DNA from: Naegleria gruberi
Taxonomy: Eukaryota
NCBI GenBank assembly: GCA_000004985.1
Contig: GG738931.1
Length of the DNA: 64,000 nt
Strand: one strand, 5' to 3'
Shown here piece by piece: positions 1 through 61,083 of this stretch. Position 1 is the first letter of the stretch. Each line of letters opens with the position of its first letter. Below the pieces are notes generated by a model. It had not been told where the DNA came from. It worked only from the letters and a program-made list of their open reading frames with translations, and searched no databases. The position numbers were made by a program, and so were the translations under genes.

Positions 1-1003
1 ATCATGAGGCTGAGAGAGTATTGAATTCTTATTGTTGAATAAGTTATTGTAGGATGAAGATAATTTAGAATACATTGATGACTGTTGAAGATATGATACA
101 AATCTAGATGATGGTGATGGAGAGGATGAACACTCGACCATAAAGTAGCTACTCGATGAATTAATTGTTGTTAATAGTAATATTAATATTGATGAAAGAA
201 GTAATAATACAAGTTTTGATGATGATGAAGAAGACTGTGATTTTCGCAAAGAAGGCAATAAGATAGTACTACTACACAATGATGATACACCAAACATCAT
301 GATGACCTTTCCTATCAAATTGGCCATATATTCAGCATCATCATGATGTCTATTCCCAAATTGTTCACGGATCACATCATTCTTTACTTCATCTTTATAA
401 AAACACAATCTTCTCCCCACACGATCAGCATCCTCATCTACATCTTCCATTCTACTACTACTACTTGTTCTTCTTATTGTATGATCAGTGCAATGATCGA
501 CATTCATTCCAATCTTCAATTTTTTTGATTATTCGCTTTGCTTTTTTCATCCATCAGCAACAAGCTGGGTTCTTCAAAGTGGATTCTTGTTGTGTGTGCT
601 AATTCTGATGTCATTGTTATTGTCTTGATCTATTGGAGAAGTGCAATGAGCAGTTCGTTTGTTTGGTACAATTATTTATTGTTTAGCGCTTGTGGTGAAA
701 TGATGCGCATTGTAATGGCTGGCTCTGTTTATTGATAGTGAACAGATAATGTGTTCTCTAAAGATCAATTAATTTACATGGTAGTCACGATAGAGAGATC
801 AGATTGTGAAATAACCATCTACAACTGTTTCCTTTATCCAGGTTTATCCAGGGTAACAGGTTGGTTGGATCCATTGGAGAAGACGTTTTCCTCAGGGTTA
901 CCCTTCTCCTTTAAGCTCTTAATGACCGTTTCTCACTTCTTCATCTTGTTTTATTTTTTTTGAAATTGTTTAACGGTTACTTTCGGAGCGAATTGAAGGA
1001 CCA

Positions 1004-2616
1004 TTATTGTTGAAGTGAAAATTGCTTGTTTTGCAAGGATTGGATATTAATCAAAATGACACTCAACTTGAAAAGTGAATAATCTGGAAAATATTCATCA
1101 TTGTGAACTCCATCTCCCTTCCAGAAATGTTCATGTTGAGCTCTGGATTTTAGCAAATCAGTTGAAAGAAATATTCCACAACCTACACAATGATCCTCTA
1201 GCTCTTGTGCAGTTTTGAAATTTTGGGAGTTTCTCCAAACTATTCCATTAATATCTGAATGAATATCGCCATACTTGGTGCCAGGTGTAATGTTGGTTGA
1301 GCATGCTTTCTTTTCTGAACTTTCGTGATCCACAATGAAATTCAAGTGTGATAGAGAAACCTATCTGATCCAATAAGGAAATAGTTATTATCATAGAGTT
1401 TAGCCAATGGAACGCATTCAAATTTGTGCATGAGATTTACAGAGACTTTGCCAATAGTTTCAACTTTTTCTTTTTGAGAAAGAGATTCGAATGGTTTGTT
1501 GTGAGGGTGGGTAAAGTCGTGAAGAATCTTTTTCTGAATATTTCCAAACGCGTTCATAACTGAGATTTTTGCTTCAATTATTTTCTTTTCATTTTCTAAC
1601 TGGGAATATAATGCATTCGAAATGAGAGAAAGTTCTGTACTTTTGAATGGAAACCTCTTGTTTGAGAACTGATTATCTTTTGATAATGATTCGCTTTCAT
1701 AGGGAGAGAGAAATCCCCAAAATTTGAATTCATTACTAATTTCTAACTGTAAAGAGTGTTTCAATCCTATTGGTATATCTAAATAGGAATATTCCAAAAT
1801 AATTGGTAAAATAAATCGTTCAAAAATCACAACATTTTGATTTGGAAATGGAAATACTCTTTGTAATTTTTCATTCAATATCACATCCTCGGCCATTGGA
1901 CTATCAATTAGAATATTCAATATCGAGTGAGGGAATTTTCTAATTTGAATTATTGGTATCTCAAATTCCTTTCCAGAAATATTCAAAATTATAGATTTTT
2001 CACTACTAGACTCATAGCTCATTAAATTACTTTGAGCATTACAATACTTTGCAGCAAGCTTGTTTTCATATTGTTGATTCTTTTCGAAAATTACATATCC
2101 AATTAGAAATATGTTATCTTTCATTGTTTGTTTGTTGATGATGCTATACTGATTTGGTTCAAATGTAATGAAGGCATCTCCTCTTTTAATCTTACCAACA
2201 TCCACTGTTCCATATCTGCTTTCCATACAAACCGAATCTGAATCCGAACTCTTACTCAACTGAATAAATATTCTCATCTGACCTTTCGATTCATTTGACA
2301 AGTTTTCATGTGTGCAACGTTTTGAGCAAGAAAAAGACCAAGAAATATTATCTTTTATCACGGCCCATAAAGAATCAATTCCAACAGGAAGGAATTTCGA
2401 GTCATCTTCATCTGAATCATTAATTCCAATTAATTGTCTAATTGAGTTTTTACATTTTTCGAATATTTTATCGGAAAGTTGTTGATCGTTAAAAATCTCA
2501 ATATTATAAAAAGATTTAATTTTTTTACTATTTTCTGCAATAATTTGTTTACATCCTTCCGATGACAAACAACGAGGCAGAAATATCAAACCTTCACCAA
2601 GTTTGAGTGTAGCCAT
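1004..2616 (-). CDS. Hypothetical protein. Two ORF segments (1342..2616 and 1004..1345) in different frames, joined either by a short non-consensus intron or by a frameshift.
   Basis: A 424-aa minus-strand ORF is followed directly by a 113-aa ORF of coding-like composition in another frame. No recognisable domain. Confidence 0.4.
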
Positions 2617-2929
2617 TTTTTTTGAGTTTACCGTCTCAAAAAAAAATGTCGTACCACCCAGTAACTACACTGTTGACCCTGAGACCACAGTGTGTTGCCG
2701 CAATACTTACACCGTACCCTATACTACCCGGGGTTCCAGCATAGGGTGTTCAAGCCAAGTATTTGTGTCCACAGAGTTACAAGAAATGAACAAAGCAATC
2801 CCAACAAGAAAGAATTTATTATTTAATATTCGTAATATCATCAAGACGAACCCGTCGGGTTCATACGATTAATAAACGTTTAAATTTTTTTTGAGTTTAC
2901 AATTTCCACTTTTTTCCACTTTTAAAAAA

Positions 2930-3946
2930 ATGCAACAAGAACATGCGCTGAACCTATCAAATCCAGTCCAGCACATGATGAGTAGCGACTCTTTGCTGCT
3001 CTTGGAGGGAAGAGCCAATGAAGGAGATCAACAAGCACTCGATGAATTATTAAATTATTATCAATTCGGAGGAAATAATAAATCGCCAATTGATGAGGAA
3101 AAGGCTTTGGAATTAATGATTAAATTTGAGGAAAATAATTCGACAATACAAAGACAAATAGGTTCTTTTCATTATTTTGGAAAGGCTAATTTACCAATCG
3201 ATTTTGAAAAGGCTTTGTTTTGGTATAGAAAATCGGCAAATAATGGAAATTCAATTGCCATGTTTAATGTTGGATTGCTGTATGATAGAGGGCAAGGATG
3301 CAATAAGAATGTGAAGGAAGCATTTAATTGGTTTTTTAGAGCTGCTGTTGCTGGGCATGGAGTCAGTCAATTTTATGTTGGAATGATGTTTGACAGAGGG
3401 GAGGGAACTGAAAAAGATATTCAACAGGCAATTTATTGGTTGAATCAATCTGTTGTGAATAATTGTATTGAGGGACTTACTTATTTAGCATCCATGTATG
3501 AGAAAGGAGAAAATATTGAACAGGATTATTCGAAAGCATTTCCATTATTTTTACAAGGTGCCAATATGGGACATGTTGAATGTATTTATCATGTTGGAGT
3601 TATGTATTTATCAGGTAGAGGAGTTGAAGTGAACTATCCATTGGCTTTGAAATACTTTTTAATGGCAGCTACACGAAATCATGCAGAAGCTCAATACAAT
3701 GCAGGAACAATGTACGATAGGGGAATGGGCTGTCTTCAAGATTACACTGAATCTTTTAAATTATTTATGAGTGGAGCAATGAATGGTCATGCAATTTGTC
3801 AATATTATGTTGGAAACATGTTATTGAAAGGCGAGGGCACTTTGGTGGATGTTAAACATGCAATTTTCTGGATGAAAAAAGCAGCTCTACAAGGAATTCC
3901 AAATGCAATTCATTACATTAAAAGTATGGAACAGGAATCAAAATAA
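2930..3946 (+). CDS. Sel1-like repeat (SLR/TPR-like) protein
   Basis: Repeated ~36-aa units with the Sel1 signature (e.g. AMFNVGLLYDRGQGCNKNVKEAFNWFFRAAVAGH, YVGMMFDRGEGTEKDIQQAIYWL). First true ATG at 2930, preceded by an A-run. Confidence 0.75.
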   Translation: MQQEHALNLSNPVQHMMSSDSLLLLEGRANEGDQQALDELLNYYQFGGNNKSPIDEEKALELMIKFEENNSTIQRQIGSFHYFGKANLPIDFEKALFWYRKSANNGNSIAMFNVGLLYDRGQGCNKNVKEAFNWFFRAAVAGHGVSQFYVGMMFDRGEGTEKDIQQAIYWLNQSVVNNCIEGLTYLASMYEKGENIEQDYSKAFPLFLQGANMGHVECIYHVGVMYLSGRGVEVNYPLALKYFLMAATRNHAEAQYNAGTMYDRGMGCLQDYTESFKLFMSGAMNGHAICQYYVGNMLLKGEGTLVDVKHAIFWMKKAALQGIPNAIHYIKSMEQESK

Positions 3947-3977
3947 TTGACAAAATTACTTGAATTAAAGTAAAAAT

Positions 3978-4013
3978 TGGAGTCATAGGGAATCGAACCC
4001 TAGACCTTCTGCA

Positions 4014-4044
<31 letters not shown>

Positions 4045-4050
4045 AACCCC
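3978..4050 (-). tRNA. tRNA-Ala (anticodon UGC)
   Basis: The reverse complement folds as a canonical cloverleaf with a G3:U70 pair, anticodon loop TTTGCAT, T-loop TTCGATT and discriminator A. An oligo-T Pol III terminator follows. Confidence 0.9.
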
Positions 4051-4621
4051 TTCTGTTATATTCCTTAATTTATTCATTAAGACATAAATATCGGCAATAT
4101 TAAATAAAAAAAATGTATCAGAAATGCCCAATTTGGAAAGAATAGTTATTTTAATGACAAGTATTTAAGAATTGACTTTCCCAAATCGATTGGAAAGATT
4201 ATTTTAAAAGAAATACAGAAATAACTCTCATCTTTCAAACAACAAATTTTAGAAAACATGTTTTTCAATGTTTATGAGCTGGATTCTTTAATCTTTTTGA
4301 AAGTTGGCAGGTCCACAAATATCAATAAAAATCGAATAAAGATTTTGTGAAATTGTATGAAAATTTGAAAGATTCTTTTCAAGATTTTCAACCTTGGAGA
4401 CGGCTATTATGGTTAATTGTGGATTATTATCGCAAAATTCTGGCAAAAAATATTTTTTTTTAATTACGGATTTGAATTATGGAAGTATTACATTAGGTAT
4501 TATGACGTGAAGAATTTTAATAAAATTATGTGAATTATTACAAATAAAAATTACAGTTTTTATTAGATTATTTATTATTGTTTTATTTTGAAATTAATTA
4601 ACTGAAAATTATTGCCAGTAT

Positions 4622-7309
4622 TTATTGGTAATAATTCATACAGAATGAAAATTGATTGAGAGCAATAAGACCTGGAAATCTGATTACACTGCACACGCTA
4701 TTAATCTTTGAAAGAGGAATTACTGAAGTGGCAACTGAGTGAATGAATAGTTTGTACATTAATGATACATAACACAACTCTCCAAGCGTAAAAATTTCAT
4801 CACAACAAACAACATTATCCCCTAATTGAGATATCTTCCCAATAAATCTATCGAATTGAATATACATTCCAACCTTAAGTGATGATTTTCTAGCAACATC
4901 AAGTGTTTTACCAACTAATCGTCTTGTAAATGGATAATCTGCAAATAATGTATTCATTCCAACTTCATGTTGCAACCCTCTAACTTCAAGTAATTTGTTA
5001 TTACTTCTATCATTAAATTGTTTGAATTCAGAATGTTTCAATTCAAAAATCAACGCCCAAAACCATGTAACATCCCCAAAAAGTACACAATCTTCAAAAA
5101 TGTGCGTTGCCCAATGATAATTCGGAAATTGGCAATTATCTTTGCCAAAACAATATGTAAAAATGGATTGAAATTTTGTAAATACTTTTTCACAATACAC
5201 AATATCATCATGAGTATAATTCCCCCTTAATAACCTTATAAAATATTGTAAGTGAAGAATCCATCCTTGATAGAGTAATCCTTTTTTAGAAGAATCTATT
5301 TTCAACTTTTGATTATTATTGTAAATTAATTCACAAATAATAGGAGCACTCATAATAATAAAATCTAACATTGAAATACCTGAAAGAGTGTCAATATCCA
5401 TTCTTAATTCAAGCTTTTTTCCATTTGGAAGAGTATACTTTGTTGATATTTCAATTAAATCATCCATAGCAGTCGCATATTCTAATGCTTGTACAAGTAA
5501 TTTGAGATGTTTTCGAAATAATCCTTGAATTTCTAAATGAAAGAAATCAACTACAGATCTACGATACGGATCTATCATTATTTGAGTAACAAATCTTGAT
5601 TTGATGAATGTTTTGACAATTAATTGATTCATCAATTGTTTTCTTTTGTTTGTTGACATTTGCTTACTTTTGAATCTCTCCTCTTCCCAAGTTTGTTCTT
5701 TTACACCTTTCCTTGCAATTCTATTTTGTTTAGAATCTGCAATTTTAGGTAATTCTGATAATTTCTCAACAATATCTTTCATTTCTGAATGTTCTCTCCT
5801 TTTAAATGTGTGTACACATGTTGGATTAAACGCGGATGCACCCATTAAATCTGTTGGTGTTTTGTCAAGGTTGTCTGACGCATCTAAACATCTGGAACAT
5901 TCATTTTTCATAAGTGCTAAACATTTCAATCTTTCAGGTGTATCTAATAAAAATCCCATACAGCAAATGAATAGCTTAATATCTTCTCCTGTAGTTGGAT
6001 GTTTCACTGTAATGATTTTACCATCATGATTTTCAAAATCTTGAATAATTGAATCAGTCATTTTCCAAAATCCTTCATTACTCCATGAAAAACCGTTTAC
6101 ACGAATTGCGCTTAAACTTGACATGAAATCTGAATCAAAATTGTAACTTGTGAAATAGGAGGCGCATGTTGACTTGGTTTTTGTTCTGAATTTAGCAAAA
6201 TCATCAAAATATTCTAAAACTAGAAATGGAAATGCATCTTCAGGGCATTTAGCAAGGTATTCACCAAATATTTTTGAAAAGTAAGGTTGATTTTCTTTCT
6301 TTTGTATATTCTTTTTTTCAAAATATTCTTTTCGTGTTAAGCACATGTGTTTTGTGATTGCTTGATCTTTCAACAACAATTTCAAATTATTCTCAAATGA
6401 AATTGCTGCAAATCCATCCTCTTGTTTGTATTCAAAATTGATCATTGCTTTTTTCCTTTCGAGTAATGTATCGTAACAAGGAATTTCGTTAAAAGTTGAT
6501 TCAGGGACCATGTATTTGAACATATCTCTAAGGAAATCGTACCCACTTTTACACAATTTGAAATGATTAACCAAAATATAACAGTATATTTCTTCTTTTG
6601 ATTGAAATACACCCTTTCCATTCACATCTTTTAAAATTTCACACCCCAAATCATATGGTAGCTCTTTAAAAACAAAATTTCCAATTTTTTCACATTTTAC
6701 ATCCGATTCTTTGTGAAATATTTCTGAAACTGGAAAATAAAGAGTGTCAATTATTGAAAAGGGAGTTTCAATTGTATTAGCAAATCCGAAAATACTACCT
6801 TCAGCTAAAACTTGTTGTGAGTGAATTCCGTTTTGTTTTAGCTTCTTCTGTTGCGATTCGTATTCAGTCAGCTTTGGTAATCTACTGTCTTTAGATTTTA
6901 GCAAATGTGTACAATGTGAATTAATAATGTGAGTGTAACAATTTTCACTGTTCATGATAAAATTACAACAATTAAATCTTGATACAGTATCTATCTTTGC
7001 AAGAGAACAATTTCCCTTAGAACATCTATTAAGATGCTTTTTTAATAAATCTCCCTTTGTAAATGTTTGACAACAAAAAGGACAGACCCAGCGTTTTGTT
7101 TGACAATCACGACATGAAGAACATAAACTTAAATCAAATGAAGATTTTGCACATTCATACACATAGTACTCTTCCTCTTTTTGACATTTATCGCATTTTG
7201 TTGCTTTTGTGAGAAAATCAAGGGATACATTGTTACCAGGTTTTTGTGTAATCATTTTTTTAGCATTGTAAACCATATGAAATTCTACCAAATAGTGGTT
7301 ATTTTTCAA
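4622..7309 (-). CDS. Large transposase-like protein (TnpD/Tnp2 or KDZ-like candidate) with an N-terminal Cys/His zinc-finger region
   Basis: Intact 895-aa ORF. The N-terminus carries multiple CxxC/C2H2-like motifs (CPFCCQTFTKGDLLKKHLNRC). An internal block GFLLDTPERLKCLALMKNECSRC resembles the DFPAYG...CPxC block of CACTA/En-Spm TnpD, and EDGFAAISF resembles its DGFNPF motif. Recognised from memory only, not by HMM. Confidence 0.45.
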   Translation of the reverse strand: MKNNHYLVEFHMVYNAKKMITQKPGNNVSLDFLTKATKCDKCQKEEEYYVYECAKSSFDLSLCSSCRDCQTKRWVCPFCCQTFTKGDLLKKHLNRCSKGNCSLAKIDTVSRFNCCNFIMNSENCYTHIINSHCTHLLKSKDSRLPKLTEYESQQKKLKQNGIHSQQVLAEGSIFGFANTIETPFSIIDTLYFPVSEIFHKESDVKCEKIGNFVFKELPYDLGCEILKDVNGKGVFQSKEEIYCYILVNHFKLCKSGYDFLRDMFKYMVPESTFNEIPCYDTLLERKKAMINFEYKQEDGFAAISFENNLKLLLKDQAITKHMCLTRKEYFEKKNIQKKENQPYFSKIFGEYLAKCPEDAFPFLVLEYFDDFAKFRTKTKSTCASYFTSYNFDSDFMSSLSAIRVNGFSWSNEGFWKMTDSIIQDFENHDGKIITVKHPTTGEDIKLFICCMGFLLDTPERLKCLALMKNECSRCLDASDNLDKTPTDLMGASAFNPTCVHTFKRREHSEMKDIVEKLSELPKIADSKQNRIARKGVKEQTWEEERFKSKQMSTNKRKQLMNQLIVKTFIKSRFVTQIMIDPYRRSVVDFFHLEIQGLFRKHLKLLVQALEYATAMDDLIEISTKYTLPNGKKLELRMDIDTLSGISMLDFIIMSAPIICELIYNNNQKLKIDSSKKGLLYQGWILHLQYFIRLLRGNYTHDDIVYCEKVFTKFQSIFTYCFGKDNCQFPNYHWATHIFEDCVLFGDVTWFWALIFELKHSEFKQFNDRSNNKLLEVRGLQHEVGMNTLFADYPFTRRLVGKTLDVARKSSLKVGMYIQFDRFIGKISQLGDNVVCCDEIFTLGELCYVSLMYKLFIHSVATSVIPLSKINSVCSVIRFPGLIALNQFSFCMNYYQ

Positions 7310-7369
7310 TGTATTCCACCAAACACAAAATCATTACGTAATAATTTCGTATGAAATATAAAAAATCAT

Positions 7370-7419
7370 NNNNNNNNNNNNNNNNNNNNNNNNNNNNNNN
7401 NNNNNNNNNNNNNNNNNNN
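7370..7419. other. Assembly gap (50 N)
   Basis: Run of N. Confidence 1.
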
Positions 7420-7472
7420 TTGCATTGTTTCCTTCCACATCAATCACTTGTCCTTTTCCTGTTGGTTTTTGA

Positions 7473-9500
7473 ATGACTGGTGGTGGTTGTGTTATTTGGG
7501 ATTTGGAAGGAATTTGTAATTCTGCATCTGCTGGTTTTATTTCTTCTTTGGTTGTGGGGGTTGAGATTTCTTTTCAACAAAAAATTGGAATTGGCAGCTT
7601 GTCAACTATGACAGGTCTTGCTGATTATTACAAAACTCTTCTTGGAATTGATTTGAATCAATTTGTGGGTTATGAAATTGTAGAAATTGATGATTCCCCA
7701 GCTACCTCTTACATGATTGATTGGAGTGATAAGAATTGTGGTGGATACAAGGATTTAGGAGCTAGATTTAATATGGGACTAGGTCTGTTTGTCTCACGAG
7801 CTGCCAATAGAGTTGCAGTTCCAGACAACTCAACCATCAAGTATAAATTGGAAAAGGATGGTGATGTCAAAGTATTGGAAATTCCATTTGTTGGCACATC
7901 GAGTGTGAAATATTTGAATGACAGCAAATTTTATGAAAGTTGTTTGAGAGTTGATTCTGCAGCTGATGTGTTGAAATCTCAAGGAATTCCAACAAGAAAG
8001 ACGCATCTCTATAATGTAGATCCACATTTTGAAAAGAGAGAACTTCCACTCAAGTCAACCGTGCAAGGAACTTTTTCAGTGAACAATATTTTGAATGGCG
8101 ACATGATCAAATATTACGAATTGACATCCAATCAAGACAGCTCCATATTAATTGGTGTAATTGTCATTGAAATCTTTTCTCCAAAATCCATTCAACAATT
8201 TTCCAGAGATTTCCAAACCAGTTTATATTTGGCCAAGCTCCATAAGGCAAAGAAGATTATTCTCGATGTTACCAATAATGGAGGAGGATATATTTGCTTG
8301 GGATATGCCTTCTCAAGATATTTCTTCCCAAAGCAATTCTCCAATCAGTACGAGAGCTTATTTGCAAGAACTGACATGATAGCTAGTGAATTGGGTAAAG
8401 AGCTAGCTCAAAAAGGAAGTGAATCTCCACAACTTGACACCATTTGGATGCCACATTTTTGGAGAGATGATTCAGGAAAGGTCTATAATGATGACTCCTG
8501 GTTCACAAATCAACATACCTTCTCTAGAGGAGGTGTCGATCATGCCTACACTTCAATTATCAAAGATAATGGATGCAGTGAAATGTTTGATGATTTCATT
8601 TTCACTGGTGACGATTTATTGGACTATAGTTCAGATGATTTGATTATTCTTTCGAATGGTAGATGTGCTAGTACATGTGCCATGTTCACATTCCAACTTC
8701 AACAATTTAAAAAAGCTAAAACAGTCGTTGTTGGTGGTGTTCACAATACTCAACAACAAATTGGTCAACTGCCAGGAGGTCAAGTTTGTGAACAACCAAA
8801 TTTGGTATTGAATATTGAGGAGTATAACATGACTCAAAGTGAACATGCTCCTAAACTCTTACCAACAACTTCTAGATTGAGATTTGCCATCAGAGAAGCA
8901 TATGCTTGGGCAGATTCTCAACTAAACTCGTTGGAATTTTCATTTCTCCCAAGTGATTTCAGATTAGATTATTCGAAAGAAAGTGCAATGGATCCAACCA
9001 AAGTATGGATTGATACTTTACAATTCTTTGACAAGTGTGCTCCATGGCAAACTCAAACATGTCAAATTACAAATGGAATTGGAATGAAGAGTTGCAATTC
9101 TGGAACTTACTCATCAGAATGTAAATTAATTTCTTGTAATGATGGATTTGGAATTGCAAATGGAAATGATTTCTGTACTCCTTGTCCATTAGGAACCTTT
9201 ACAAAAGGAACTGTTTGTGAGCAATGCACAAACAAACCAGTCAACTCACATTATCTCAATAATACTCAACAAATCTGTGAATATCAATGCGATTTAGGAT
9301 TTGAGATTGATAATACTGGAACTAAATGTGTGGAAAGTGAATACGAATCCGTTCAAAAACCAATTCTTTCATTCTTGGTTGCCTTGTGTGTAATTGCCAT
9401 AATTGTTGCATTCCTTTCCATTGTTGCAAATTCAGTTCTTGGATTCAAACTCTATCAAACACGTAAAGAAAATCAACAAGAAACCATGCAATTAATGTAA
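7473..9500 (+). CDS. Peptidase S41 (C-terminal processing protease-like) family protein with a Cys-rich EGF/TNFR-like stalk and a C-terminal TM anchor. The 5' end is probably missing in the gap.
   Basis: KKIILDVTNNGGGYI matches the S41 IIDLRxNGGG motif. LILSNGRCASTCAMF matches the catalytic-Ser region (vLvNxxSaSAsE). The C-terminus has CxxC-rich repeats, then a hydrophobic segment ILSFLVALCVIAIIVAFLSIV. Confidence 0.7.
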   Translation: MTGGGCVIWDLEGICNSASAGFISSLVVGVEISFQQKIGIGSLSTMTGLADYYKTLLGIDLNQFVGYEIVEIDDSPATSYMIDWSDKNCGGYKDLGARFNMGLGLFVSRAANRVAVPDNSTIKYKLEKDGDVKVLEIPFVGTSSVKYLNDSKFYESCLRVDSAADVLKSQGIPTRKTHLYNVDPHFEKRELPLKSTVQGTFSVNNILNGDMIKYYELTSNQDSSILIGVIVIEIFSPKSIQQFSRDFQTSLYLAKLHKAKKIILDVTNNGGGYICLGYAFSRYFFPKQFSNQYESLFARTDMIASELGKELAQKGSESPQLDTIWMPHFWRDDSGKVYNDDSWFTNQHTFSRGGVDHAYTSIIKDNGCSEMFDDFIFTGDDLLDYSSDDLIILSNGRCASTCAMFTFQLQQFKKAKTVVVGGVHNTQQQIGQLPGGQVCEQPNLVLNIEEYNMTQSEHAPKLLPTTSRLRFAIREAYAWADSQLNSLEFSFLPSDFRLDYSKESAMDPTKVWIDTLQFFDKCAPWQTQTCQITNGIGMKSCNSGTYSSECKLISCNDGFGIANGNDFCTPCPLGTFTKGTVCEQCTNKPVNSHYLNNTQQICEYQCDLGFEIDNTGTKCVESEYESVQKPILSFLVALCVIAIIVAFLSIVANSVLGFKLYQTRKENQQETMQLM

Positions 9501-9731
9501 AAATCTAATTTCCTCACTTTACAAAATTGTTTAATAATTAAACTTTTTAAATATTTCCAAAAAAGGGCTTTTTCAAAATCAAAAAAAAATATCCAACAAG
9601 TATCTATTGATTTTTCATCATCCATTGATTATTTCAACCCTCACTAAATCCGTGAGAGAAATCCCATTGTAAATATTTAAATACAACAAACCCGAGAAGC
9701 GAATTTTAATTTATTGGAAAAATTGCGGAAA

Positions 9732-10592
9732 ATGATCAAGTCGTTAAATTCTGCATTAATTTATTACCTGATGATTGGTTGTTTGTTGGTTTTAATGTTA
9801 GGAACAATTCAAGATCAGCAGCAGCAACAGGGTTTTGTTTTTGGATTTTCTGTAAATATTCAAAAAGTTTCATCACAAGCAATTAATAAGAAAACATTCG
9901 TCGGATTGCATGCAAGCAATAATGGGAATGAAAGAGCTGTTAGTAATAGTGGATCTGCTGGATTGCTTGGAGGATTGTATCCATCAAACTTTTATCAACA
10001 TCCAATGATTGGATATGATTGTTTTTATGGATATACCTTTCCGAATTGTACATGCACACAGCATAGTCCACAAAAAACAGCAACAAATAAGAGGAATGAT
10101 GATTGCTATGGACCTAAATGTATGTTAGTGAAGAGTGATTCGAGGGCCACAACAGGAAATTTCACATGTGGTGTCAAGGAGAGTGATTCGGGAAATAATG
10201 CAGCCATTGTGGATTGTAGTCATAATGCAAATCCAAATACTGATAATGCTTTCTACTTTTCTGAATGCAATCCATACATTCCAAAACCTCACCACAACAG
10301 GTTCCTCAATACAACCTCAATTTTGAATTTGTTCGATCATGAATTCAGATTTGAGAGTATTGATGAAAGCAAATCCAAGACAATTGTTAAATGTCCTTTG
10401 AAGAGAACTCCAGGTTCGTTCCTTAAAGGTTATGCTGTTCAAGTGGATGTGCATGTTCATGAAGTGAGAGATGGATTCAATGATTTTGTTTGGGTTACTC
10501 ATGTTTTTTCGTGTAATAGCACTGCTATTGAACAACAAGCACCTTTGGGTGATTCAGGCTTTTTACAACTTGTTCTTGTGAAAAATAAATAG
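9732..10592 (+). CDS. Secreted cysteine-rich protein (unknown family)
   Basis: N-terminal signal peptide (MIKSLNSALIYYLMIGCLLVLMLG), a poly-Q stretch, and many Cys. The ORF is continuous. Confidence 0.5.
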   Translation: MIKSLNSALIYYLMIGCLLVLMLGTIQDQQQQQGFVFGFSVNIQKVSSQAINKKTFVGLHASNNGNERAVSNSGSAGLLGGLYPSNFYQHPMIGYDCFYGYTFPNCTCTQHSPQKTATNKRNDDCYGPKCMLVKSDSRATTGNFTCGVKESDSGNNAAIVDCSHNANPNTDNAFYFSECNPYIPKPHHNRFLNTTSILNLFDHEFRFESIDESKSKTIVKCPLKRTPGSFLKGYAVQVDVHVHEVRDGFNDFVWVTHVFSCNSTAIEQQAPLGDSGFLQLVLVKNK

Positions 10593-10607
10593 TGAGATAG
10601 ATTTTAT

Positions 10608-12953
10608 TTACATCTTTGCCAATTCATCCAACAAGTCCTTAACCAAAACAACCTTTTCAGTGGCATTGGTTTCAGTTTGCAAAGCAATCTTGAAAGCATA
10701 GAGTTGATATTCAGAGTCAGCATCGAACAACATATAGACATGTCTGTTGTCAGACTTTCCATCCTCAAGTTCAATTTCCTTCTTTCCTTCCTTCTTAGCC
10801 TTTTCCATAAACTTTTGGAATTCATCATAAACATATGAGTATGTGTATCCATTTGATGACTTGAGTTGTAATTGACGATTTTCACGATCCAAATAAACAG
10901 CTAAATGGCTTCTTTCCAAAGTATCAACATTATCACAAGTAACAAATCTCAATTTGGTGGCATCAAACTTGTTATAACTGGCATAATAGTCGTGAGTGTA
11001 TAAATCTAATGGTTTGTTGGAATGTTCTACGAGAATATCCTTCTTCTTTCCAGTAGAGTCAGTAATTGTAACTCTAATAACCAATGGTTGTGGAAGAGAT
11101 TGATGAGCACGAGCTCTAGAATTGAAATCTCTACCTGGTTGGCCAGTAACAACAATAGCACCACTGAAAACTAAGTTATCAGCTTGACCTGGTTCAAAGT
11201 TAGCAACTTGACCTTCAAAGAATTGGTATTGAGCACCATTCCATCCGTTATATTTAACACCCAATTTGATATTTTGCATTTCAACCCATTCATCGGCTTG
11301 ATTCTTGTGAGCCATTTCAATCTTGACAAAGGACAAATTAGCATCTGACTTGTTAACAACAGTCAATGGAACATTGAAGAAATTGTTGAACTTTCCATCA
11401 GTTGCATAAGAGCTTTGAGAAGCTTCAATAAGTGAATTCAATGCAGCTTGTTCATCAGTGGCAACAAGCAAATTGAATTGAGAATCACCATGATCTTCAT
11501 ACTTCTTACAGTTAGGTCTTGGAACAATGGCCAAATCTTCACCCTTTTGTGGATTGGTTGTTTGCTTTTCAGTGAGATCCTTATAATATTCGAGTGGCTT
11601 TCCAGCAACTTGTGCAATTGGTTCAGTGCTTGGATTACCCAAAATCTTCCATGTACCAATAGAAAGAAAACCATCACCATCCTTTCTAATTCTCCAATAT
11701 GGAGCAGAAATGCTTGGAACAACAAAGGTTGTTAATCCATCAGTCAATCCATTCAATTGCAAAACATTCTTCCAGTTAATTTCATCTTGAGAGTAGGCCA
11801 AATAAGAACCAGCCAAATAAGTTGAACCCCAACCAGATACCAACAATGGCTTGACAACAATACCAGTAACGGTATGTGGATGTTCAAATGTAGCTTGAAC
11901 AAAAGGTCTAGAATTAGAATTAGTAGCAGCACCACTATTACCACTTTCATCTTGGAGTGATTCATAACTTTGTCCAATAGAATCAGAAGCGTATTGTGAA
12001 CTCATTCTAACCTTGTATGACAAGGTAACAGAATCTTCAGAAACAGTGGTTGGAACAGGTGACAAGGTTGGAATATCTTCCAATGAAGCCAATTCAACAG
12101 CTGGACCATTTCTGGAAACCTTAACATCATCCCACTTCAATGGAACCATAAACATGGTTGGCTTTTCACTGTTTGAAAGTTTGATAGAGGCCAAAACATG
12201 CAAAGTATTCTTTTGAGCATTCTTGGTCAATACGAATGAAGTTGACATTAACCATTCAACACCTGAGAAAGTCTTGGTGGAAGTAACCTTAACATCATAA
12301 TTAGCAGCAAAATCATCAGCAGAGTTTTGAGATCCCAAATCCAATGTAGCATATTCTCCAAAGTTATCATAGATATCCTTCTTTAAGGTTTCAGCAACAT
12401 TAGTTAATTGATCTGGTGTGAAAAAGTATAACTTGGAAACAGTAACACCATTCATTAATCTAACATAGAGTTTACCATGTTGATGCAAACCAACAGTGAT
12501 AGTCTTCTTATACTTGTCACCTTCATCAACGAGTTCCATAACGTGCAATGGTTCACTAGTATCCATCAATGGAAGTTGCTTTCTATTCAAAAGCTTTGGA
12601 CTCATCAAGACAATAATATCATCCAAACGTTGATCCAAAGTATTAGATTGCAATACTTGACTCAAAAAGGCTGAATCATCAGTTGATTCAATTTCAAATT
12701 CTTGATCATTGTAAATAAAGGAAACAACAGAATCAAGTGTACTGACACTCTTTCCCAAATGCTTGGCCAATTGAACTTGAAGATCGGAACGGAAATTCTT
12801 CCATGTCAATTCATGAGGAGCATATTTCAAGTTAGTATAAACAAACTTTAATTGCACTTCTTCTTGTGGATCTTGATTTCTAGAAGGTGGATTAGAAAGT
12901 GATTTGTAATAAACTCTAATCTTGGTCACTGGAGCTTGTCTTGAGGTTGTCAT
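10608..12953 (-). CDS. Large hypothetical protein with a discoidin/F5-8 type C-like domain
   Basis: Uninterrupted 781-aa ORF with an ATG start. The segment FEHPHTVTGIVVKPLL...YLAYSQDEINWKNV resembles the discoidin-domain core (VTGVxTQG...YSxDGxNW). Confidence 0.55.
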   Translation of the reverse strand: MTTSRQAPVTKIRVYYKSLSNPPSRNQDPQEEVQLKFVYTNLKYAPHELTWKNFRSDLQVQLAKHLGKSVSTLDSVVSFIYNDQEFEIESTDDSAFLSQVLQSNTLDQRLDDIIVLMSPKLLNRKQLPLMDTSEPLHVMELVDEGDKYKKTITVGLHQHGKLYVRLMNGVTVSKLYFFTPDQLTNVAETLKKDIYDNFGEYATLDLGSQNSADDFAANYDVKVTSTKTFSGVEWLMSTSFVLTKNAQKNTLHVLASIKLSNSEKPTMFMVPLKWDDVKVSRNGPAVELASLEDIPTLSPVPTTVSEDSVTLSYKVRMSSQYASDSIGQSYESLQDESGNSGAATNSNSRPFVQATFEHPHTVTGIVVKPLLVSGWGSTYLAGSYLAYSQDEINWKNVLQLNGLTDGLTTFVVPSISAPYWRIRKDGDGFLSIGTWKILGNPSTEPIAQVAGKPLEYYKDLTEKQTTNPQKGEDLAIVPRPNCKKYEDHGDSQFNLLVATDEQAALNSLIEASQSSYATDGKFNNFFNVPLTVVNKSDANLSFVKIEMAHKNQADEWVEMQNIKLGVKYNGWNGAQYQFFEGQVANFEPGQADNLVFSGAIVVTGQPGRDFNSRARAHQSLPQPLVIRVTITDSTGKKKDILVEHSNKPLDLYTHDYYASYNKFDATKLRFVTCDNVDTLERSHLAVYLDRENRQLQLKSSNGYTYSYVYDEFQKFMEKAKKEGKKEIELEDGKSDNRHVYMLFDADSEYQLYAFKIALQTETNATEKVVLVKDLLDELAKM

Positions 12954-13505
12954 CTTTTTTCGGGAGTGTGAGGAGGAAATTAGTGTGTAGTTTTTGTTTT
13001 GATCAAAAAAAGTTTATGCACGAGCAAGGCTTTCTAAACTTTTGTGATTTTTTTTTTAAGTTGTAAAAATTCAAATCGTTGGCGCAAATCTTTTTAAATC
13101 AGCGCCGTAATCAAGAGCTTAAAAAACAAGTTTGTTGTGCAGAAGAAAATTCGAGTTGAAAAATTTCTTGAATGTGAAAGAGATCAATTTTGAAAGTCTT
13201 TCCGAGGTAATTGATTGAATGTGGTGGAACGAGAATGAGATGACGGATTACAATGAGTGATGGCAATGTTCAGTGGAAGTTCGAAGCTGGTTGTTCGAAT
13301 TTCTGCTCGGAATGGAAATTTTGATTGGAAGTTGTTTCGATTTGATTGCTTTGAATATTTGAAGCTGGTGGTTTGAATATTGAGGTGTTATTGTATTATT
13401 TGTGAATGTTCTTTATTTAACAGTTTACAATTAACAAACCGTAGTCTTTGATTTATTGTAAAGTATTTCAAAAAACTAACTGATTTTTGAGATCTTTGAA
13501 AAAAA

Positions 13506-14491
13506 ATGTTTTCTGAACTTTCAGCAGTTGGCAAAATCATTCAGCAAGATCTTGTTGATGTTCAACAACATCATCACAAGCATAAACTTCTATTAGAAAC
13601 CTTACGAAAACCAATTCATGACACAAAGAGTGAACAAGGAAAATTGCAATTCAACAGTTTACTGAGTGAGAAGAATTTATATTTGAAATTTATGGAACGA
13701 TCCGAGAGAATTGATGAAATTAAAATCATCATCGGAACATCGGAACATGATGAAAAAAGTAAAATTAATCATCATCACATTCATCATCATCATCATGATG
13801 AGGAAAATAATGATCATCACTTCTTCCGAATGGCAAATATTGAAAAAGTTTCAGTTTTGGAGGATAAAATTCCAAAAACAAGTGATTATGAACCGTTATC
13901 TTGGGCTTGTTTTGGGAAATGCAAAAAATCAAGAATTGACTTTTTGAGTAGGATTACAAATCAAGAGGTTTTTCAAGCTATGAGATTGGAACAGGAATTT
14001 ATGGGTGAAAATGTGTTTATTGGATTTTCGTAAGTAGATATTTGAGAAAATTGAGGAAATTAATTGAAAATGAAAGTGATTTTGGAGTTGATGATTCACA
14101 AGAGTTGGAACAGAGCAAGAATTTGTTGCATATTTGTTACAAGTCACATGTTCATCATGGCTTTTTATTGGTTATTGATACAGTGGACGTTTCAGAAAAT
14201 TATTTATTGAATGAATTACCTTTGTGGGTGAAGGATTTAAGAAGTGTCATATCAGATTCCGTTCCAATCGTTCTGATTGGCAATAATGCTGATAAGAGAG
14301 ACGCCTTATTATCAACTCAACATAAATTGGAAGATAGACTTCCTTTGAGTACAGAACAGGGAGAGAAACTAGCTGAAAAGTTGGGCTGTTTCACATATAT
14401 AGAAATGGAAAAGGAATTGTCAATGGATAGTTTGAGACAATTACTTGTAAAAATTCATATCATTCATCAAGATTTGACAGTTCACAAATAA
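13506..14491 (+). CDS. Ras-superfamily-like protein with degenerate nucleotide-binding motifs (candidate pseudoGTPase), 2 exons, His-rich insert
   Basis: The second ORF segment HHGFLLVIDTVDVSENYLL...VPIVLIGNNADKRD aligns to the Ras switch II to G4 region, but NKxD is NNAD. No P-loop (GxxxxGKS/T) is present in exon 1. The segments are in different frames and are joined by a short GTAAGT intron. Confidence 0.5.
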
Positions 14492-33892: not shown

Positions 33893-34275
33893 TCATGATG
33901 AAAGATCTAAGGTAACATAATTATTTCCTATTTCCCTGGTAGTAAGAAGAAAGAGTAGGGGTTATCTGATGAATTTGTATATGAAAGTAGTAACAAGCTT
34001 GATATTCATTACTACTGATGTCTATCAACAAAATTTCACATTGCTGATGATGTTTACATATCANNNNNNNNNNNNNNNNNNNNNNNNNNNNNNNNNNNNN
34101 NNNNNNNNNNNNNCTATCTGAAGTTCATGATGAAAGATCTAAGGTAACATAATTATTTCCTAGGTTATCTGATGAATTTGTATATGAAAGTAGTAACAAG
34201 CTTGATGATATTCATTACTACTGATGTCTATCAACAAAATTTCACAATTGATGATGTTTACATATCAATTAAACG
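33893..34275. repeat. Direct tandem duplication (~170-230 bp per copy) flanking an assembly gap: copy A 33893..34063, copy B 34114..34275, ~90% identical with a 30-bp indel
   Basis: The strings catgatgaaagatctaaggtaacataattatttcct and ggttatctgatgaatttgtatatgaaagtagtaacaagcttgat...gatgtttacatatca occur on both sides of the N-run. Confidence 0.7.
34064..34113. other. Assembly gap (50 N)
   Basis: Run of N. Confidence 1.
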
Positions 34276-60252: not shown

Positions 60253-61083
60253 ATGCTATGGGTAGAAATGGAGGTGGACATCCCACCAAAACAACAAGCA
60301 AAAAGAACACTCAAAGCCTTCGCTAAAATAATTCAGGTAAGGTGCCAAATAAGAAGACAATTTGACACAAGGCCAAAACAAATTGTTGGAGACAATATAG
60401 TGTCAGCAGCTAGATCAACGATCCTTGTTTATGTTGAGACAAACTCTAGAACAAAACTGGAAAATTTTTTGTTGGCTACTTACCACGCCTTCAAAAGATA
60501 TTCCCTGTTGTTTATTGCTGATACTCAAAACCAACATATAAGACAATCTGTTATACAGGCTCCTAGAAACCCTCCCACTAGTGGTAACGAAGACAGCAGT
60601 GACGATACCACATCTATCAAGAGCATTTCACTACCTGTACAAACAAATAATTCGCCCAGTAACAGTACTGATACTAAATGGGCTTTATTAGAAGCCTATT
60701 TAATTGAGTTGAAAAGAGTTCCTTCTGGCTCGGAATCAGGCAATATTTCTTCAAGTTACAACTTAAATCCAACAGAAGAAATTATTCATGATACCCATAA
60801 AAACAAACCAAAAGTTACATCACCACCAAAACCAATCAAACATTCTCCAACCCTACAAAGAGCTGTGATACATTTCAAATGGANNNNNNNNNNNNNNNNN
60901 NNNNNNNNNNNNNNNNNNNNNNNNNNNNNNNNNTTGGAGAATGTTTTGGATGCATTGATTAGATTTAATGGAGATGATGAAGCCAAGATTGGATATGCTT
61001 TTGAAAAACTAAGACTAAAAGATGACAGAACCGCAAAATCCATTACAAGATGGTTGTTTTCAACCTTATTGACTAAAGATTAG
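60253..61083 (+). CDS. Hypothetical protein; the CDS is interrupted by an assembly gap
   Basis: ORF with an A-rich start context. Contains a run of X from the N-gap. Confidence 0.4.
   Translation: MLWVEMEVDIPPKQQAKRTLKAFAKIIQVRCQIRRQFDTRPKQIVGDNIVSAARSTILVYVETNSRTKLENFLLATYHAFKRYSLLFIADTQNQHIRQSVIQAPRNPPTSGNEDSSDDTTSIKSISLPVQTNNSPSNSTDTKWALLEAYLIELKRVPSGSESGNISSSYNLNPTEEIIHDTHKNKPKVTSPPKPIKHSPTLQRAVIHFKWXXXXXXXXXXXXXXXXXLENVLDALIRFNGDDEAKIGYAFEKLRLKDDRTAKSITRWLFSTLLTKD
60884..60933. other. Assembly gap (50 N)
   Basis: Run of N. Confidence 1.

Follow-up and report, generated by a model that had tools for sequence, protein, structure and literature searches.

What does an intact open reading frame (ORF) of 895 codons encode when it stands between a transfer RNA (tRNA) gene and an assembly gap in the genome of the amoeba Naegleria gruberi? 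The ORF lies on the minus strand, at 4622..7309, of a 64-kb stretch of contig GG738931.1 (the whole of this stretch is referred to below as the window). A preliminary description of the DNA had read it as a transposase gene in AT-rich surroundings between tRNA-Ala and the gap, and had left two explanations standing, an autonomous DNA transposon or a domesticated transposase. This raises the questions of whether the gene belongs to mobile DNA at all, to which known transposases it is related, and whether this particular copy could still move. Here we confirm the coordinates and base composition, and conclude that the product of the ORF is very probably the DDE transposase of a multi-copy family of cut-and-paste transposons that was recently active in N. 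gruberi. That it is a transposase gene is supported by conserved motifs and by a predicted fold of the RAG1/Transib type, and recent activity by the other copies of the family.

At least four scaffolds or contigs of N. gruberi NEG-M carry gene models that fall into the 90%-identity cluster of the window product and are 99.7–100% identical to it. The models NAEGRDRAFT_65505 (877 amino acids (aa), on a 782-kb scaffold; compared over 877 aa), NAEGRDRAFT_75925 (a 629-aa model on a 138-kb scaffold) and NAEGRDRAFT_76847 (a 111-aa model on a further contig) are 100% identical to the window product, while NAEGRDRAFT_52500 and EFC39176, on a 309-kb scaffold, are 99.7% identical (a 320-aa model with one substitution, beside a 111-aa model). 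The window locus is itself one of the two 100% models, either that of 877 aa or that of 629 aa. A metagenome contig in ENA (ERZ929261 / ERR1078381, here L007, positions 1–669) holds 423 bp that are 99.3% identical to window positions 5772..6194 and in which TGG has become TGA (a nonsense change), 1 bp is deleted and one missense change has occurred; AT-rich DNA of no relation makes up its other 242 bp. The contig represents, in an environmental sample, a member of this family that has decayed or been truncated. Several near-identical loci and a decaying copy speak for a transposon that was active recently, and against a single-copy gene that has been domesticated.

The nearest characterized relative shows what a complete element of this kind looks like. 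In N. lovaniensis six contigs carry one and the same ORF of 870 aa (742 aa as annotated), flanked by unrelated genes and sharing ~40% identity with the window ORF. The element around it is 4,391 bp long (~4.39 kb), of which 1,290 bp precede the ORF and 489 bp follow it, and its six copies are 99.6–99.9% identical to one another. It ends in perfect 12-bp terminal inverted repeats (TIRs), 5'-CCTAGGAGCAGA...TCTGCTCCTAGG-3', with the termini CCTAGG..CCTAGG, and 2-bp target-site duplications (TSDs) are present at 6/6 copies (AT, AA, TT, TT, AA, TT). The N. lovaniensis relative is a textbook cut-and-paste transposon. With at least four loci in N. gruberi, and with TIRs and TSDs in N. lovaniensis, the domesticated alternative of the preliminary description does not hold at the family level, and neither does the single-copy, syntenic orthologue lacking TIRs that it had named as the mark of a host gene; the TIRs of the window copy itself were not found.

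Several other features of the related elements were recorded. Towards each end of the N. lovaniensis element, inside the 12-bp TIRs, there are short repeats built on the pattern C(A/T)GTATTTTA (L001 8328..8400 and 12450..12632), which are likely subterminal binding sites. A small divergent gene stands upstream of the transposase both in N. lovaniensis (L001 8778..9480, minus strand; conserved core 8859..9020) and in a metagenomic relative (L008 1618..1905, minus strand; core 1708..1869). A 54-aa basic/acidic stretch of this gene is 41% identical between the two (tblastx E 4e-10), and divergent small gene models also occur upstream of the transposase in L009 and in the contig of relative P0002; nothing like the small ORF was seen in the window, where the gap intervenes. 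When the metagenome contigs L008 and L009 were searched for ends, an L009 TIR candidate (18 nt, 78% complementary) was dropped, there being no matching TSD. Beside its six intact copies, N. lovaniensis also has many fragmentary models of 186–483 aa, and FDP41_013229 of N. fowleri (186 aa) shares the 90%-identity cluster of P0005 with fragments of the N. lovaniensis element. These entries suggest that there are relics in N. fowleri, a pathogen, and broken copies in large numbers in N. lovaniensis.

The 895 codons of the window ORF are counted from a TTG, directly upstream of which are two in-frame stops, and run without interruption to the stop codon at 4622..4624. The true start is probably M12 (7276; 884 aa) or M19 (7255; 877 aa), the latter being the start chosen in the 877-aa NCBI model. 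An open frame of 2.7 kb at this base composition is far beyond chance (GC content 30.0% in the ORF, 23.1% in the 3' spacer and 33.6% in the 64-kb window). The ORF aligns end to end with relatives of 865–870 aa, and is the sole copy of the transposase within the window, where a second copy was not found.

Conservation was judged from an alignment of 78 family sequences, in which the occupied rows are fewer in individual columns (e.g. 40, 44). D369, D456, C471, C474, H591, G596, H732, H736, G745, W751 and E756 are conserved at 95–100% in this alignment, their codons were confirmed in the window DNA, and the window ORF is intact with every conserved residue present. On the sequence and the structural model we propose D369, D456 and E756 as the DDE catalytic triad of an RNase H-like fold. 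Both zinc motifs, C471-x2-C474 and H732-x3-H736, fall between D456 and E756. In RAG1 the corresponding layout is D600, D708 and E962, with C727/C730 and H937/H942 (PMC4914335). By pattern, C471/C474 corresponds to RAG1 C727/C730 and H732/H736 to H937/H942, and the spacing from histidine to glutamate is 20 residues in both proteins (H736–E756 here, H942–E962 in RAG1). The block GFLLDTPERLKCLALMKNECSRC, singled out at the start as a transposase signature, contains the conserved D456, C471 and C474, and the signature is that of the CACTA-related assemblage. EDGFAAISF, which had been equated with the DGFNPF block, is present but unconserved; the block of the first aspartate is LEYFDDFAKF.

The clustered CxxC/C2H2-like motifs noticed earlier at the N-terminus were borne out and proved to be conserved in relatives as well. 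They comprise C39-x2-C42, C63-x2-C66, C76-P-F-C79...H92...C96 and CC114/115...H132-C-x-H135, and the pattern C-x2-C...C-x2-C...CPFC...F...H...C, followed by CC...Y.HII..HC.HL, is kept in the window ORF, the N. lovaniensis ORF, P0002 and P0003. Residues 71–101 gave a marginal match to the C2H2 finger of ADR1 in a search of PDB sequences (E 0.7). The region presumably binds DNA at the transposon ends. Public models of the transposase are shortened: one N. gruberi model, of 629 aa, begins at ORF residue 267, and the N. lovaniensis database model has 742 aa against an 870-aa open frame (L001 9617..12229). The zinc-finger N-terminus is therefore absent from some database entries.

For the rest of the protein, a structural model was informative once the family alignment was supplied. 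AlphaFold2 run on the single sequence gave a predicted local distance difference test score (pLDDT) of 34, which is unusable, whereas with the 78-sequence alignment residues 230–895 reached a mean pLDDT of 92.6 and a predicted template modelling score of 0.91. Compared with the PDB by Foldseek, this model gave significant matches that were, in 36/36 cases, the RAG1 core or the Helicoverpa Transib transposase, the best at E 6e-12 over ~650 alignment columns and the next unrelated one at E 0.2. Other DDE transposases and integrases ranked below RAG1/Transib, and a Foldseek search of a viral structure library gave no match. The predicted core matches RAG1/Transib over about 450–650 residues at a sequence identity of 12–14%. 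As modelled, the window transposase has a RAG1/Transib-type core, that is, an RNase H-like domain with an inserted split zinc-binding domain.

Relatives of the protein were sought by an exhaustive HMMER search of 1.84 billion representative proteins. It returned 75 relatives at E<=1e-3, ten of them at E<=1e-30, the best being P0002, a full-length metagenomic protein of 865 aa (E 1e-153). Named members of the family come solely from N. gruberi, N. lovaniensis and N. fowleri, the remainder being metagenomic, and apart from one near-identical fragment no relative in the representative library exceeds 45% identity. A word-indexed protein search returned only the query itself, both for the protein and for a 37-sequence alignment, and both metagenome scans were empty for this family.

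Placement among Pfam families came from the relatives and the family consensus. Relative P0022 (HMMER E 9e-14 to the window ORF; BLASTP 2e-20 over residues 345–776) matches Plavaka PF18759 at 40.1 bits, and the consensus emitted from the 78-sequence profile does so at 32.6 bits, the gathering cutoff of this model being 26.3 bits. The matches cover the D2 / C-x2-C / D..H.E..G part of P0022 and of the family consensus. Because these two pass the cutoff and the Naegleria sequences do not, the Naegleria lineage appears related to Plavaka and yet distinct from the PF18759 model. Four scanned relatives also gave weak DUF4218 matches (E 6e-4 to 0.02) over the H-x3-H...E block. The preliminary description had suggested Transposase_21 (PF02992) or a KDZ-like transposase; in scans of the window protein, 36 relatives and three consensus sequences, neither PF02992 nor any KDZ model appeared, even at E<=10.

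Several points weigh against reading the window ORF as the transposase of a recently active family. TIRs and TSDs had been proposed as something to look for around the ORF, and none was found for the window copy: a search for inverted and direct repeats in window positions 1..14000 brought up neither a TIR nor a TSD that was credible, scanning the relevant part of the window with up to 2 mismatches allowed did not recover the N. lovaniensis TIR, and the DNA of the N. lovaniensis element, its arms included, shows no similarity beyond the coding region. If the gap is truly ~50 bp long, the peptidase gene on its far side would start only ~160 bp away from the ORF, a distance into which a 5' arm like that of the N. 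lovaniensis element, 1,290 bp, would not fit. A Pfam scan of the window ORF at E<=10 gave nothing, and no Pfam family was matched by the N. lovaniensis ORF or the Naegleria-clade consensus. RAG1 was not recovered when PDB sequences were searched with the sequence or with profiles, and the RAG1 relationship therefore rests on predicted structure and motifs; since the training data of AlphaFold included RAG1 structures, the likeness to RAG1 relative to Transib may be inflated. Lastly, we infer that the N. gruberi loci are transposed copies rather than segmental duplicates.

The termini of the window copy were not found because its 5' side enters the gap 60 bp upstream of the ORF. It is possible, although we think it doubtful, that this copy is an immobile relic which lost its 5' arm and TIR at the gap by truncation or rearrangement and could supply transposase in trans only, a situation that would be compatible with the family being mobile. 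Only 60 bp separate the ORF from the gap and 53 bp the gap from the S41-peptidase-like ORF, no TIR was found, and the DNA past the gap shows no resemblance to the small divergent ORF or to the upstream arm that related elements have. However, the three gaps of the window (7370..7419, 34064..34113 and 60884..60933) are each exactly 50 N, so that their lengths are probably placeholders and not estimates, and an assembly of the Sanger era can be expected to have gaps beside near-identical repeats. The product of this locus is also 100% identical to that of another copy, so any truncation would be very recent.

On the 3' side two leads were followed in the spacer between the ORF and the tRNA gene. 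The sequence CCTTGGAGACGG resembles the N. lovaniensis TIR, and such TIR-like matches are expected by chance about 0.2–1.6 times in 570 bp (our estimate); as a 3' terminus it is a weak candidate that falls within chance expectation. Copies of TTGRAAAGAT are clustered nearby, and could be subterminal transposase-binding repeats or unrelated sequence upstream of the tRNA gene; this motif was picked after inspection, which makes its enrichment only suggestive. The two leads conflict, CCTTGGAGACGG as the terminus being at odds with the cluster as subterminal repeats.

Taking the window ORF as an active family's transposase, its mode of action can be outlined by analogy with RAG1/Transib and CACTA-type transposases. 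An RNase H-like domain with D369, D456 and E756 would form the catalytic core, its large D456–E756 insertion carrying the split zinc site of C471/C474 and H732/H736. The N-terminal zinc-finger region and the core may together bind the TIRs, the paired ends would then be nicked and excised via hairpin chemistry, and insertion by a 2-bp staggered cut would leave 2-bp TSDs.

The tRNA gene next to the ORF invites another explanation, namely that the element targets tRNA genes and that the 571-bp distance to tRNA-Ala results from directed integration. The ORF adjoins the only tRNA gene in 64 kb, and the chance of landing so close to one is a few percent by rough estimate. The preliminary description had pointed to dictyostelid-type genomes, in which tRNA genes are preferred landing sites for several families of mobile elements; the genome here is not of that type but that of N. 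gruberi, as is clear from annotated proteins with 100% identity, and at 0/6 N. lovaniensis insertions is there a credible tRNA gene in the 8–10 kb flanks. No mechanism or domain indicating RNA polymerase III factors was seen. To judge from these insertions, tRNA targeting is no trait of the family; it is improbable here in our judgement, and the adjacency is most likely a coincidence.

Domestication, with the gene kept by the host for a cellular function, is very unlikely. In its favour are the intact ORF, the lack of detected TIRs at the locus and the presence of a single copy in the 64-kb window, whereas at least four loci in one genome have products that are 99.7–100% identical and the L007 copy has decayed through a stop and a frameshift. 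Apart from the near-identical fragment, relatives in the representative library stay at or below 45% identity and the named ones are confined to Naegleria, and the nearest characterized relative, that of N. lovaniensis, is a bona fide transposon. Least credible is membership of CACTA TnpD (Transposase_21) proper or of KDZ, which the order of D2 and C-x2-C, the DUF4218-like H-x3-H...E block resembling CACTA TnpD and the weak DUF4218 matches of four relatives would favour, and which the complete absence of PF02992 and KDZ models at E<=10 (protein, 36 relatives, three consensuses), the 2-bp TSDs in N. lovaniensis against 8 bp in Zisupton/Dileera, and termini of CCTAGG instead of CACTA weigh against.

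Table 1. Features of the transposase gene and its neighbourhood in the window. Residue numbers are those of the 895-codon frame.
Feature	Position	Strand	Remarks
Host gene neighbour, Sel1-repeat protein	2891..3946	+	Pfam E 3e-54
tRNA-Ala(TGC)	3978..4050	-	ARAGORN; only tRNA in 64 kb; 571 bp beyond ORF stop
Spacer from ORF stop to tRNA, non-coding	4051..4621	-	571 bp, 23% GC; should hold the element's 3' end, which was not located
TTGRAAAGAT cluster	4133..4382	.	5 copies (<=1 mismatch, both orientations) in 250 bp; 66 in whole 64 kb
CCTTGGAGACGG, weak candidate for 3' terminus	4393..4404	+	Against TIR CCTAGGAGCAGA: 8/12 positions, 7 of first 8, expected orientation
C-terminal all-beta domain, residues ~816-885	4655..4864	-	Possibly BAH-like
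RAG1/Transib-like transposase core (predicted), residues 230-800	4910..6622	-	
E756 codon, proposed catalytic glutamate	5042..5044	-	20 residues after H736; 95% conserved
H732-x3-H736, H(3)H zinc motif	5102..5116	-	98% conserved
C471-x2-C474, C(2)C zinc motif	5888..5899	-	15 residues after D456; 100% conserved, 44 rows
D456 codon, proposed second catalytic aspartate	5942..5944	-	In LLDTPER; 95% conserved
D369 codon, proposed first catalytic aspartate	6203..6205	-	In LEYFDDFAKF; 97% conserved, 40 occupied rows
N-terminal Cys/His-rich zinc-finger-like region, residues 39-135	6905..7195	-	Motifs conserved in relatives
60 bp upstream of ORF, up to gap	7310..7369	-	No similarity to N. lovaniensis upstream region
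Assembly gap, 50 N	7370..7419	.	Hides the element's 5' part or marks truncation
Host gene neighbour, Peptidase_S41 domain protein	7473..9500	+	Pfam E 3e-8; start codon 53 bp past gap

Existing ideas are not overturned by these elements, which are ordinary mobile DNA of a known assemblage. They add a heterolobosean branch to the CACTA/Plavaka/Transib/RAG1 assemblage, and this bears on the age and spread of the RAG1-type core. In three genomes the Naegleria proteins are annotated no further than as 'predicted protein' or 'hypothetical protein', and recognizing them as transposases that belong to a defined TIR element cleans the annotation and explains an assembly gap. That copies are near-identical in both N. 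gruberi and N. lovaniensis suggests that the elements are active at present, and such an element could serve as a genetic tool for Naegleria. Our literature searches, which did not cover Repbase, found no description of such elements in Naegleria. A bolder proposal, which we regard as tentative and more probably wrong than right, is that the Naegleria elements together with their metagenomic relatives form a separate Discoba lineage of RAG1-fold transposons, one of named rank, with non-canonical termini (CCTAGG), 2-bp TSDs, a small conserved accessory gene read in the divergent direction and, fused to the transposase, a BAH-like domain of the chromatin-reader type; as identical copies occur in two species, it may still be active. 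If so, they would provide a culturable protist system for RAG1-type transposition, and the RAG1-type core would extend to eukaryotes very distant from animals and fungi.

By its motifs, fold, TIRs and TSD length, the window family is a member of the CACTA/Plavaka/Transib/RAG1 assemblage. The wider CMC or 'CMCT' assemblage is taken here as EnSpm/CACTA, Mirage, Chapaev, Transib, Plavaka and ESTA as well as Lanisha, with TSDs of 2–5 bp. Like RAG1, ProtoRAG and Transib, the window transposase has, as predicted, the core fold, the DDE triad, the split Cys2/His2 zinc site and the 20-residue spacing from histidine to glutamate. It differs from RAG1/Transib in its low identity (12–14%) with no match at the sequence level, and in a histidine motif of H-x3-H where theirs is H-x4-H. 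Transib/RAG elements make 5-bp TSDs and have heptamer-like CAC termini, whereas the N. lovaniensis element has 2-bp TSDs and CCTAGG termini. As further differences from this group, no RAG2-like partner was seen, the N-terminus of the window protein is unlike theirs, and there is an extra C-terminal beta domain.

With CACTA/En-Spm TnpD, Mirage and Chapaev the family shares the motif architecture that defines the group, together with the weak DUF4218 matches in four relatives. Further likenesses to this group are the short repeated motifs towards either end of the N. lovaniensis element and its 2-bp TSD, which is also the TSD length of Mirage. Unlike CACTA elements, the family has no PF02992 match and its termini differ from CAC(TA); there is one ORF, free of introns, and in place of a TnpA homologue the related elements have a small divergent ORF. 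Of the features of the CMC group, TIRs and a 2-bp TSD are present in the N. lovaniensis relative, whereas its ends do not follow the 5'-CA..TG-3' pattern found 'in most cases' (PMC12730594), which is frequent and not obligatory in the group.

Plavaka is the only Pfam family tied to ours by score, via P0022 and the family consensus, and the C(2)C and H(3-4)H motifs are common to both. Among the fungal elements, PlavakaA has 2-bp TSDs and TGT..ACA termini, and PlavakaB has CATCA..TGATG termini (PMC12730594). The 2-bp TSD is thus shared by PlavakaA and the N. lovaniensis element, whereas the N. lovaniensis termini, CCTAGG..CCTAGG, correspond to neither type, PF18759 misses the window protein, the N. 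lovaniensis ORF and the Naegleria-clade consensus, and the host is a heterolobosean and not a fungus. KDZ transposases are likewise large eukaryotic DDE transposases with Cys-rich N-terminal regions, but there is no KDZ Pfam match here, and the Zisupton and Dileera families make 8-bp TSDs (PMC12730594) in contrast to the 2 bp of the N. lovaniensis relative. Within the assemblage to which it belongs, the window family is set apart by the CCTAGG termini and the heterolobosean host, by its escape from all Pfam models, by the small conserved divergent ORF in its relatives and by the extra C-terminal beta domain.

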